64,000 bases of DNA, taken from the NCBI GenBank assembly GCA_951406725.2, contig OX597815.1, positions 136,896,001 through 136,960,000 of the forward strand, in the 5' to 3' direction. The notes beneath the pieces were generated by a model that worked only from the letters and a program-made list of their open reading frames with translations, was not told the DNA's origin and ran no database searches. This DNA comes from Octopus vulgaris (Eukaryota). The stretch's first letter is position 1, and every line of letters starts with the position of its first letter. This document shows positions 14,625-18,118 of this stretch, piece after piece. The position numbers were made by a program, and so were the translations under genes.

Positions 14625-14843
14625 ATTCTTGTTTGTCATTTGACTGCGGCCATGCTGGAGCCACCTTTAGTCGAGCAAATCAAACCCAGGACTTATTCTT
14701 TGTACATACATATATATATTTACGTCTAACAAATCCACTCACAAAGGTTTTGGTCGGCCCGAGGCTATAGTAGAATACACTTGCCGAAGATGCCACGCAG
14801 TGGGACTGTACCCCGAACCATGTGGTTGGTAAGCAAGCTACTT
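14625..14843 (-). mobile_element. SINE family B, 3' part (split by U3 and U4)
   Basis: Reverse complement of the SINE B body, ending at GTAAGCAAGCTACTT (14829-14843). Confidence 0.9.
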
Positions 14844-16571
14844 TATTTCATTGCATTTTCCATTAAGGCAGTACATAAAGTGTAGCTTTGCGGGCTAGAC
14901 AAGAACATTAATGAAGTAAATGATAATGAAACGAAGATAATAAGGATGGGAGAAGACAAAAAGCGCCCGCCGACTTTTGCTTCTCTAAAACATTGTTCTT
15001 CAGAAAAATACAAAATGATGCATTAAACCGCTTACAATAGTTTTTACGATTTAAAACACGTAGTTGGGGCAATAAACCTCTTACCACAGTTTCTACAATT
15101 TAAAACACATAGTTGAGGCAATTAAGTTCCTTCCTCCCCGACCAGGCTGTACGCTACAATAGGCACTGCTCCAGGTCCAGGTCGAGGCCCCGGAATGCAA
15201 ATCTGAACATTCCTTAGAGAAAGCTTCTATCACCCTGAACATACCGACATCCGATATGACCTTCATAGTCACCTGCGAATGCCAATCCTTGTCCTCTGTC
15301 CATGGCATGGGCTCCTCACTCCGGTCATCCAGCTACTCTACGAAGCTCTGTACTGTCCCGCCCTTCTACAAGAAGATGACAAACTCCTTTTTTCTCCTTC
15401 CAGGAGGGGCCGCTGTTTCCTCTGTCGGCGGCAGGCATCCCATCGACAAATTTCCGGGCATGCCTGCAGTTCACCATCAACCGCCGGCAATGTTCCATTC
15501 TTCTCCTTTTTTTTCGTTTCCGCTTTTCCTTTACGACGGGAGAGTGGACTTCCTCCGTCTTGTCTGGAAGTTCTTCTATTCCTTCCGCTGCCTCAGGATC
15601 CATTGATGGGCAACCATTGTTGCCCACCTTTCTTTTTCTCCCCTTCTTTTTTTATGGGGTTGCCTCCTCCTCGATTTCCTCCCTCTCTCCTTCCCATCCA
15701 ATGAGGGAGCAGGGGGCTCTTCTATTAACTTTTCCAGGACCTTTGCTTGGTGCCGGAGACAGTTTTTGTTTATGTGGCCCAATACCAGGCACAGGAAACA
15801 CTTGAGGGGAGCGGCGTCTCTTAAATATCACTAGGTGCCCGGAACAGGCCATTGTTAAAAATGGGAGAACACAGCTATGGTGTCGAGGGACGTAGAATAC
15901 GTCCTCAACACCACCGTTCTCGCATTAAAATTTTTTAGCCACTGCTTGGGAGCCAAAATTTGCCACTCCAATACAGTGTTTTTAGTTGTCATGATGACAA
16001 AACAGAGCAAATAAAAAATGCTCAAAATAAAAGTTCAAAAAAGTTTCAAATGAAAAATCAATAAGCAACTCAAAAAAAAAAGAACGGAAAGATAGAGCAA
16101 AGAACGAAGGAAGACAGTTCAATTGAAACACTATTCCGCCACTTAGGTAGTCCATACCAATGTAGGTTCGCCAACGCAGCACAAAAATATTCTAATTTTG
16201 GTTTCTCCCAGCTAAGTGAGACTTTAAACACAAAACACAGCGATTTTTCTGGCCGTCCCGGTACTTCAGGCCAATTGGTAATCCTCCTGGCGGAAATAGT
16301 TGGAAATAACACAATTTTCGGAGAGACACGCCTCTCAAAACAAACCTCTCACAACCAAGTGAGACTTTAAGCACGACCACTGGCAGACAAATGCATAGAA
16401 TCCAGTGGAGACCTCTTGTTCGACAAAGAATAAATAATACCAGCAACATAACCCCACTAGGTCCCAGAAAATCAGACATCTTACCTAGTAGTTGTGCTTC
16501 ACTATTTCTCGACGTTGACACTCACCGACGTGACTTCCACCGCGAAAAAAATGCGCCCTCTCTGTACTGAA
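14844..16571 (-). mobile_element. SINE-targeting ORF1-only retroelement, unit U3
   Basis: Flanked by GTAAGCAAGCTACTT at 14829-14843 and 16572-16586; ORF1 remnants NTVLEWQILAPKQWLKNFNARTVVLRTYS and KCFLCLVLGHINKNC (CCHC). Confidence 0.88.
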
Positions 16572-16586
16572 GTAAGCAAGCTACTT

Positions 16587-18085
16587 TTATTCATTGAATT
16601 TGCCATGTAGGCAGCATATAGATAAGGTAATTTTGCAGGCTGGACACAAACAGTGATGAGGCGAATGAGTATGATACAAAAATGATAAAGATGGGAGAAG
16701 ACAGAAAGCGCCCGCCGACATTCTGCTTCTCTAAAATATTGTTCTTTAAAAACGCATATACAGAGGCATTAACCCTCTTACAATTACAAATACAATATAT
16801 TTGGACTAAAAAGTCTATACAATTATAAAACACAATTTATACACAAAATGAAGACGATAAACCTCTACAATCCTTCTCCGAGTAATTTTCTTGCAACTTG
16901 CAGGCATTCATGCAACCGCAATCCGGGGCTCCACAAAAGAATTCTATAATTCTCGTTTTTACACGAGTCAGTTATAAGATCACAGTACTTTCTTTCCAGC
17001 ACCAGAGCATCCACCTGCGGAGGCCACTCTAGGCTGTCGATACAAGTCGGGTTTCCCAGGACCCGACTACCCATATTATTCTCAACGAAACTGTCAATAA
17101 CTCTTCCCCTGAGATAGAACATATATTCTTCATCACTTTCACTGGGAGGGGCCTCAACTCCCTCTCTCAGTGGCACACATCTCACTGACGAGGTTATCTT
17201 CTCCCCCCTCCGGTGGCACATATCCCACCGATGGAGTTTCGAGACATGCCGTTGCCAGCAATGCCCCGTTTTTCTTCTTTCTCTTCTTTTTTCCTTTTTC
17301 GACGGGAGGGTTGAGTTCCTCCGATATCTCTGGAGGATCCTCCCTCCCCTCGCCGTTTCAGGTCCATCGGCGGGCAACCATTCTTGCCCACCTTTTTTCT
17401 TTTCTTCCCTTTTGTTTTCGAGCAGGTTACCTCCTCCTCGACTTTTTCCTCCACTGGGGGAGCAGGGGACACCGTTTCAAAGAACTGTTCCAGGACACTT
17501 GCCTGGTCCCGGCAACAGTTCTTCTTTATATGGCCCGATTCCAGGCACAAGTAAGCCTTGGGGGAACGTTCCTCAACCATCACCGGGTAACTGGAACCGG
17601 CCATTGTTAAAAAATCTGGTAAAATCAGATCATCGGCTGATTGGGTCCGTAGGGTCAAAATTGTTTTTTGACCCGACCCAATCAACCGCAGGCAACATTT
17701 TTACATTTAAGAGCCTGGCAGCTCTTAAATAGTGTCTTCTATCCACTCGGCCTCTATACCGGGTGGCAGCCCACACACCCAGGCTCTGCTCAACTTTTCT
17801 ACAAACTCAGACATAGAAAATTCCAAAACATTTTCGAAGGGACACGCCTCCCAAAATAAACACAATTTTCACTTCGAAGTGAGTCTTCTTCCACAACCAC
17901 TGGCAAACAAATGCCTGGAACCCAGTGGAAACCCCGTTCGAAAAAATTCTTAAATACAAACAGCAAACCCCACTAAGGTCCCAAAAAAACAAATGCTTTA
18001 CCTGCGATCGTGCTTCAAATGTTCGGTTTTTCACGTACGACGTGACTTCCACCGCGACGAAAAACAACGCGACGACTTTGTAGCA
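16587..18085 (-). mobile_element. SINE-targeting ORF1-only retroelement, unit U4
   Basis: Flanked by the 15-mer at 16572-16586 and 18086-18100; ORF remnant YPVMVEERSPKAYLCLESGHIKKNC with basic/acidic C-terminal region. Confidence 0.88.
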
Positions 18086-18118
18086 GTAAGCGAGCTACTT
18101 ACCACACAGCCACTCCTG
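18086..18118 (-). mobile_element. SINE family B, 5' head (A box) displaced by the insertions
   Basis: Reverse complement CAGGAGTGGCTGTGTGGTAAGTAGCTCGCTTAC matches the SINE B heads at about 55045 and 55485. Confidence 0.88.

Follow-up and report, generated by a model that had tools for sequence, protein, structure and literature searches.

In the window analysed here, a 64,000-nucleotide stretch of Octopus vulgaris DNA (contig OX597815.1, positions 136,896,001 to 136,960,000), a minus-strand short interspersed element (SINE) is split by two inserts, referred to as U3 (14844-16571, 1728 bp) and U4 (16587-18085, 1499 bp). As the original prediction had proposed, the SINE head lies upstream and the SINE body downstream of junctions that each carry a 15-mer of the SINE, exactly at 14829-14843 and 16572-16586 and with one mismatch at 18086-18100 (all on the minus strand). 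U3 and U4 are decayed members of a family that holds only the first open reading frame (ORF1) of a long interspersed element (LINE) and shares its SINE-head site with a 5.44-kb LINE of L1/Tx1 type, the likely supplier of endonuclease and reverse transcriptase (RT) in trans. The parts of the locus are, in window positions:

18101..18118, minus strand: 5' head of the host SINE, with an A-box-like motif at 18102-18112; the same head stands before most full-length insertions
18086..18100, minus strand: 5' junction 15-mer, with the mismatch at its position 9
16587..18085, minus strand: U4, decayed ORF1-only element, with ORF1 remnants at 17458-17796 and 16883-17185
16627-16634, minus strand: antisense motif of U4, decayed
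16601-16613, minus strand: inner 3' hairpin of U4
16572..16586, minus strand: internal junction 15-mer, between the tail of U4 and the 5' end of U3
14844..16571, minus strand: U3, decayed ORF1-only element of another subfamily than U4, with ORF1 remnants at 15867-15995 and 15210-15809 (zinc knuckle)
14882..14889, minus strand: antisense motif in the 3' untranslated region (3'UTR) of U3, a 7-nt perfect complement to the target start
14858-14870, minus strand: inner hairpin of U3
14829..14843, minus strand: 3' junction 15-mer, the host target, whose first two bases complete AATAAA
14625..14828, minus strand: body of the host SINE, 83-90% identical to five other copies in the window, with a B-box-like motif near 14802-14812 that is mutated here

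The host SINE has at least 35,729 exact heads in the 2.8-Gb genome. Its A-box-like and B-box-like motifs were recognized by eye from the box consensus; neither ARAGORN nor Rfam gave a tRNA match in the head. That insertion separates the two motifs, as had been claimed, is plain from the sequence. U3 and U4 are homologous yet diverged, aligning in three blocks at 71-78%, and their internal deletions differ: compared with a natural intact ORF1, the matches are limited to amino acids (aa) 104-222 and 312-411 in U4 and to aa 1-43 and 187-388 in U3. Both lack any match to ORF2, in agreement with the predicted absence of RT. The closest relatives of U3 among the fetched loci are 82-86% identical to it, nearer than U4, so the two elements belong to separate subfamilies and are not a local duplication.

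The ORF1-only family and the LINE at the SINE-head target

A sequence-specific, non-autonomous ORF1-only family at the SINE head, as originally postulated from this one locus, is supported across the genome, where hundreds of copies occupy one SINE-head position and exact junctions of tail, target and SINE body number 373, vs. 0 for a reversed control. The terminal 147 nt of U3, searched without the target, gave 1747 candidates. Among the 29 best other loci, picked by tail only, the tail was followed by the 15-mer within three mismatches in 21, by a decayed site plus SINE body in three, by the first 11 nt of the 15-mer in one, and by other sequence after one to six matching bases in four. The flanks are thus not random, most U3-tail copies adjoining the SINE target. 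Extended loci have the layout of head, 15-mer, 1.9-2.6-kb element, 15-mer and body, among them complete natural ORF1-only copies, about 2 kb long and with a junction at either end, and one young dispersed family of 1.98 kb retains an intact 415-aa ORF. With 35,729 exact intact sites against 373 filled ones, occupancy is about 1%; the effect on the SINE population is therefore small, and the putative loss of RNA polymerase III transcription through box separation concerns about 1% of SINE copies.

The N-terminal 214 aa of the ORF1-only protein have a predicted fold (predicted local distance difference test score, pLDDT, 90) that matches tandem RNA recognition motif (RRM) proteins, with a CCHC knuckle after it. 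By sequence, searches of Pfam and PDB returned a weak knuckle only, the fold coming from prediction, and ZCCHC3-type RRM clusters score 0.90, which is a lead only. The closest named homologs are in Octopus sinensis, with a protein 61% identical, and Argonauta, while the ORF1 of a relative is 29% identical to the ORF1 of the LINE (E 1e-22). Eight natural ORFs, drawn from several subfamilies, were compared in 28 pairs; the ratio of nonsynonymous to synonymous substitution (dN/dS) is 0.10-0.33 in every pair and dS reaches about 2, which indicates that the lineage is old and that its ORF1 has been kept under purifying selection through many rounds of transposition. No ORF2 was found within 1.5 kb behind ORF1-only-type tails (0/46 loci, among 60 examined), and all six ORF2 matches among the 60 lie behind LINE-type tails. 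Most of one young ORF1-only copy is covered by contigs from four runs, presumed to be RNA; they give no ends or strand and were not used as evidence.

These properties bear on a very improbable alternative, namely that ORF1-only copies are one-off deletion products of the LINE, with arrays arising by unequal crossover. It accounts for one-off or small deletion derivatives with LINE-type tails (L292, L304 and L301 in our numbering of loci). As a general account it is refuted by the ORF1-only elements' own tail type, own 5'UTRs and many subfamilies, together with their selected ORF1; the young dispersed family and the Octopus sinensis homolog also speak against it. As an observation in its own right, L292, L304, L301 and L269 are internally deleted LINE copies in which ORF1 is joined almost directly to the LINE tail, and new half elements may arise repeatedly from such deletions.

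The original prediction had pointed to an autonomous element with an apurinic-type (AP) endonuclease (APE), RT and the same target as a thing to look for, and such a partner was found. Position-ordered junctions had ORF2 sequence upstream in 6 of 30 cases, leading to a LINE of 5.44 kb with an ORF1 of 467 aa (two predicted RRMs and zf-CCHC) and an ORF2 of 1133 aa (Exo_endo_phos, RVT_1 and zf-RVT). Four fetched copies have a 1150-codon open frame across ORF2, and 21 near-full-length copies differ by 0.13-2.7%, marking a very young family. The best PDB match of ORF2 is L1 ORF2p (E 1e-66; R2, 1e-19), and the presence of both ORFs, with AP endonuclease, RT and a C-terminal zinc finger, makes this an APE LINE of the L1 group. 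ORF1 of the Tx1 clade combines RRMs with a CCHC knuckle; this anatomy and the target preference would fit a putative place in that clade.

The LINE, too, sits at the target: the exact 8-mer target follows 94 of 105 exact LINE tails, and the listed position-ordered LINE loci have the target in 30/30 and the SINE body in 29. Copies truncated at the 5' end with a fixed 3' end and target-site duplications are present, and older LINE subfamilies share the site. ORF1-only elements and LINE have in common the target, a terminal motif of about 35 nt, an antisense motif described below, and mixed arrays; we infer that the LINE very probably mobilizes the ORF1-only elements in trans.

Junctions and arrays

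The 15-mer had been interpreted as a target-site duplication, which holds in part. Its 3' copy is host sequence, varying with the host subfamily, and locus-specific variants occur on both sides in L044, L223 and L224. The 5' copy is a mosaic whose distal part is, in full-length copies, the element's own 5' end: in 20/20 full-length young LINE copies whose host differs at positions 13-15 (9 + 11 copies, three of which adjoin another element), the 5' 15-mer ends in the element's TAACC. The element therefore carries a piece of its target at its own 5' end. One extra T is often found near position 9-11 of this copy. By analogy with these young copies, the 15-mer at 18086-18100 in the window is likely host duplication proximally and the element's own 5' end distally. 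Truncated copies without the TAACC end share 16 nt with the host in L223 and L230, 7-10 nt in L064, L069, L137, L150, L199 and L295, and about 1 nt in L204 and L215. A true duplication always of 9-10 nt, which we considered, is ruled out by the 16 nt of L223 and L230.

At the 3' junction, the 3'UTR had been described as ending in AATAAA. The hexamer is indeed at the junction, but it straddles it, with 4-5 nt from the element and 1-2 nt from the target. No poly(A) tail was seen in the DNA of any junction read, for either element type. The 3' junction of the LINE copy L095 contains an extra 8-nt target copy, as an RNA with target sequence at its end would be expected to produce. No support was found for 3' junctions being copied from RNA over the sequence of variant hosts: variants at positions 1-8 are rare on both sides and shared in L044, L223 and L224. 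Strict selection on target positions 1-8 beyond the subfamily base at position 4 was likewise not shown (1.2% vs. 2.2% mismatch). A separate observation at L266 (G000:C1:111116891) is that of two element tails in inverted orientation inside the SINE target, resembling a twin-priming product.

The same junctions decide on a further alternative, to which we give next to no credence, that a composite of head, insert and body was amplified as a unit. SINE sequence does lie on both sides of almost all copies. At 14 young LINE loci, however, divergence is 0.21% between the inserts but 8.55% between the host SINEs, which come from different subfamilies; this refutes composite amplification for the young LINE. 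The 5'-truncated copies at the same site and the two-sided variants of L044, L223 and L224 also argue against it.

Arrays exist, as predicted, but regeneration of the target alone does not explain them, since occupancy is about 1% and arrays are above chance. Among 62 young LINE copies with both ends read, 11 of them chosen for odd 3' junctions, 8 adjoin another element, far above that occupancy. Regeneration is thus needed but not sufficient. Mixed arrays include seven half elements with a LINE, a LINE-half-LINE series and the pairs L243 and L252, and reuse affects both types of junction. Young LINEs are located behind old tails in L229 and L249 and in front of other elements in L116 and L254. 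In one array of seven copies, private variants recur between neighbours and two of the copies show 0 substitutions. This points to growth of at least this long array on the spot, by duplication or as a concatemer, and is what favours unequal crossover. The three copies of L172 look independent, one being nearer a distant locus than its neighbours. Unequal crossover, named by the original prediction as the competing origin of U3 and U4, does not apply to these two separate subfamilies and stands for some long homotypic arrays.

The window has a second array, of three units and of the same kind as that of U3 and U4:

7313..8100, plus strand: units 1-2, the 3' part of an ORF1-only element ending at 7877, a 10-nt target copy at 7878-7887, and a 5'-truncated 3'UTR fragment at 7888-8100
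8101..9590, plus strand: unit 3, with the 15-mer at 8101-8115, an ORF1-only element at 8116-9575, the 15-mer at 9576-9590, and SINE body following

No SINE head was seen upstream of this array (7313 on). A dimer subfamily was found elsewhere (L037, L040, L043, L046, L049 and L035; L025 and L027), consisting of a full half element, an internal target copy and a truncated unit of about 490 bp. The short unit starts at the same base in many loci and is also found alone, and the dimer appears to have moved as one read-through unit.

The antisense motif and the choice of target

What the original prediction overlooked is an antisense copy of the target within the element: the complement of the first 8-10 target bases is present in the 3'UTR of both types, about 45 nt (ORF1-only) or about 80 nt (LINE) upstream of the end. 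Where loci were selected on the target alone, 17 of 30 have a perfect complement of at least 7 nt; for comparison, shuffles gave 1.9% and control 11-mers 1/120. The motif stands at its two spacings in lineages with unrelated neighbouring sequence. Two SINE subfamilies differ at target position 4 (T-type and A-type), and the motif mostly follows this difference. The pattern has 906 hits (control 61), and a hand count of the first 100 gave 72 T-type and 23 A-type targets with the matching motif and 5 mismatches, 3 of which either have no hairpin or are a reverse reading; for LINE-type tails, motif and target type match in 45/46 (4 non-LINE rows of 50 dropped). With the trait base masked, changes to the A-type pair number four on the half-element tree (at least three on supported branches) and three on the LINE tree (at least two). 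A first tail tree had included two 5'-truncated rows and two long branches that inflated the change count; these were later excluded, and L166 (long branch) replaced the duplicate L063.

When the tail is folded together with 15 nt of target, an outer stem closes around the inner hairpin in most of 33 motif-selected copies. The inner hairpin is 90% paired, with 9 compensatory cells, and 0/500 shuffles scored as high; pair counts were limited to this hairpin because MAFFT misaligned the antisense region.

Under the mechanism that we propose, transcripts would extend past the element into the copy of the target that flanks it; the first bases there would complete AATAAA, and about 8-15 nt of target would be left at the end of the RNA. 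By pairing with the antisense motif, 45 nt upstream in ORF1-only elements and 80 nt upstream in the LINE, this tail would close a stem around the hairpin. The endonuclease would nick the bottom strand at target position 1, the RNA tail would base-pair with the strand that primes reverse transcription, and the cDNA would finish in the element's own version of target positions ~10-16, which would hybridize to the overhang of the top strand and leave the mosaic 5' junction. Both junctions would remain usable, and arrays would likely grow through re-insertion combined with local amplification or with template switches from one RNA to another whose end is complementary. Packaging in cis would be the reason for ORF1-only elements to retain an ORF1 protein of their own. 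We lean towards the view that read-through gives the RNA a tail able to fold on the motif and to pair with the target once nicked, by analogy with R1Bm, which, in the portion of PMC7265360 that deals with it, requires downstream target sequence in its RNA.

Whether such guidance would be strong enough to select the SINE subfamily is doubtful. The SINE subfamily matching the LINE 5' end is enriched among young LINE hosts (34/59 vs. 10/46 empty sites), which age could also explain. Similarly tentative is a fuller version in which target choice is partly RNA-guided and inherited from the donor locus: a flank-derived tail and its covarying antisense motif would pick the SINE subfamily, the element would track its host, about 10 nt of RNA could redirect the choice, and complementary ends would allow LINE and ORF1-only RNAs to be copied into mixed concatemers in one event.

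Several observations weigh against the mechanism or the partnership behind it. The read-through tail is deduced from indirect signs, and duplications of about 1 to 16 nt in truncated copies indicate that the cut positions are not fixed. The motif is shorter than 7 nt in 13 of the 30 unbiased loci and decayed in U4. The tails of L073 and L078, which with one upstream of L249 form a further tail family at the same target, have no recognizable motif in their last 110 nt. Independent contrasts (same/opposite/unchanged) are 3/0/1 for ORF1-only elements and 2/0/1 for LINEs, each with p >= 0.25 and not significant. One clade of 9 rows, a successful subfamily, keeps a T-type motif on A-type targets, and single mismatches of motif and target occur at L288 and C3:69526536. 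The loci used for pattern-hit matching, tail folding and inner-hairpin counts were selected by motif. Finally, the LINE ORF1 is just 29% like that of the ORF1-only lineage, so that direct descent from the young LINE would be conjectural.

A reading that we consider rather unlikely keeps the same two elements and lets specificity come from the LINE endonuclease only, the motif being structural or passive and kept matched by quasi-palindrome correction or by lineage or age. The non-significant contrasts and the clade that works with a mismatched motif favour it, and a 10-nt site would be enough for SINE-only insertion, few non-SINE 10-mers being found among 24 'other' sites; the Tx1L and R1Bm endonucleases are described as target-specific in the relevant part of PMC8869645. 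On the other side, the motif persists at two spacings amid unrelated flanking sequence, the switches recur in at least three ORF1-only and two LINE lineages, AATAAA requires the target and L095 has its extra target copy, and the matching SINE subfamily is enriched among hosts, with the same reservation about age.

The SINE subfamilies, differing by one target base that the 3'UTR motif mostly follows, offer a natural experiment on protein-read vs. RNA-paired site choice, a question relevant to LINE-based targeted gene insertion. The three levels of parasitism (LINE, ORF1-only passenger and SINE host) include very young, apparently intact members and are therefore assayable, and a deep ORF1-only lineage under selection is a clean test of why half elements keep ORF1, with cis packaging as the candidate reason.

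Related systems and other repeats

Being multi-copy and ORF1-only with an ORF1 under selection, the elements are half elements of a HAL1-like kind; a tandem RRM plus knuckle ORF1 and the lack of poly(A) set them apart from HAL1 proper. In mammalian L1 and HAL1, ORF1 is made of a coiled coil, an RRM and a C-terminal domain, and HAL1 has a poly(A) tail. Unlike HAL1, the present lineage has an RRM-RRM-CCHC ORF1, is site-specific, lives in an invertebrate and is old, at 29% from the active LINE ORF1. Like mammalian HAL1, which is presented in part of PMC5753468 as a non-autonomous element that makes ORF1p only and arises repeatedly from its LINE, it is non-autonomous and codes for ORF1 only.

Target sequence preference is frequent in the Tx1 clade according to sections of PMC4494074, whose examples include Tx1L in Tx1D, Keno (U2 snRNA), Kibi/Koshi, and crocodilian Tx1-Mar with SINEU in Mariner-N4. 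As in those systems, an APE-type LINE prefers a repeat, shares its target with a non-autonomous partner, and gives tandem insertions at a duplicated site (PMC4494074). Here, in contrast, the target is a SINE head and the partner is a protein-coding ORF1-only element rather than an snRNA-headed SINE; SINEU has a poly(A) tail and our elements none, and a target-complementary 3'UTR motif is not described for Tx1 in those sections of PMC4494074. Dictyostelium TRE5-A.1/A.2, as covered by part of PMC5633606, is similarly position-specific, with an ORF2-less variant mobilized in trans and targets of the RNA polymerase III type, but TRE5 inserts about 50 nt upstream of tRNA genes, not within them, and A.2 is no deep lineage but a variant form of A.1 (PMC5633606). 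In R1Bm and SART1Bm, downstream target sequence in the RNA serves accurate priming, as may be the case here; both belong to the R1 clade with rDNA or telomere targets, and an internal covarying antisense copy is not described there in the portion of PMC7265360 concerned.

The searched full-text literature (subscription journals, Repbase, Dfam and SINEBase lie outside it) gave no report of a SINE-head target, of an ORF1-only partner of such a LINE, or of a target-complementary 3'UTR motif. An annotation of O. vulgaris reports 13 active L1-Tx1 families, with 'target', 'nested' and 'ORF1' unmentioned in the portion of PMC13282606 available. For cephalopod annotation, our results mean that, of the repeats listed as 'L1-Tx1' or as unknown with a length of 2 kb, some lie nested at a single position of a SINE.

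Other repeats accompany these elements. A second high-copy SINE (window 53061-53471, plus strand, and 3800-4024, minus strand, among others; also L019, L026, L016, L128, L243 and L304) has a tail much like the LINE 3'UTR. AAGAA usually follows it; in L019 and L026 it sits at the same target as the present elements, and in four cases part of its own head comes next. It is possibly mobilized by a related LINE lineage, with self-targeting. At 18780-19641 (plus strand) lies a zinc-knuckle ORF fragment, 39% identical over 66 aa to the LINE ORF1, with the tail type of the second SINE and away from the SINE target; it may represent a further lineage of half elements that uses a different site. A different APE-RT LINE is present in several copies, 88-97% alike and spaced by about 2.8 kb, at 22781-33750 (minus strand) and 56939-59054 (plus strand); it has a 957-aa frame at 29673-32546 with a CCCH-rich frame upstream, and its copies are interrupted at TA microsatellites.

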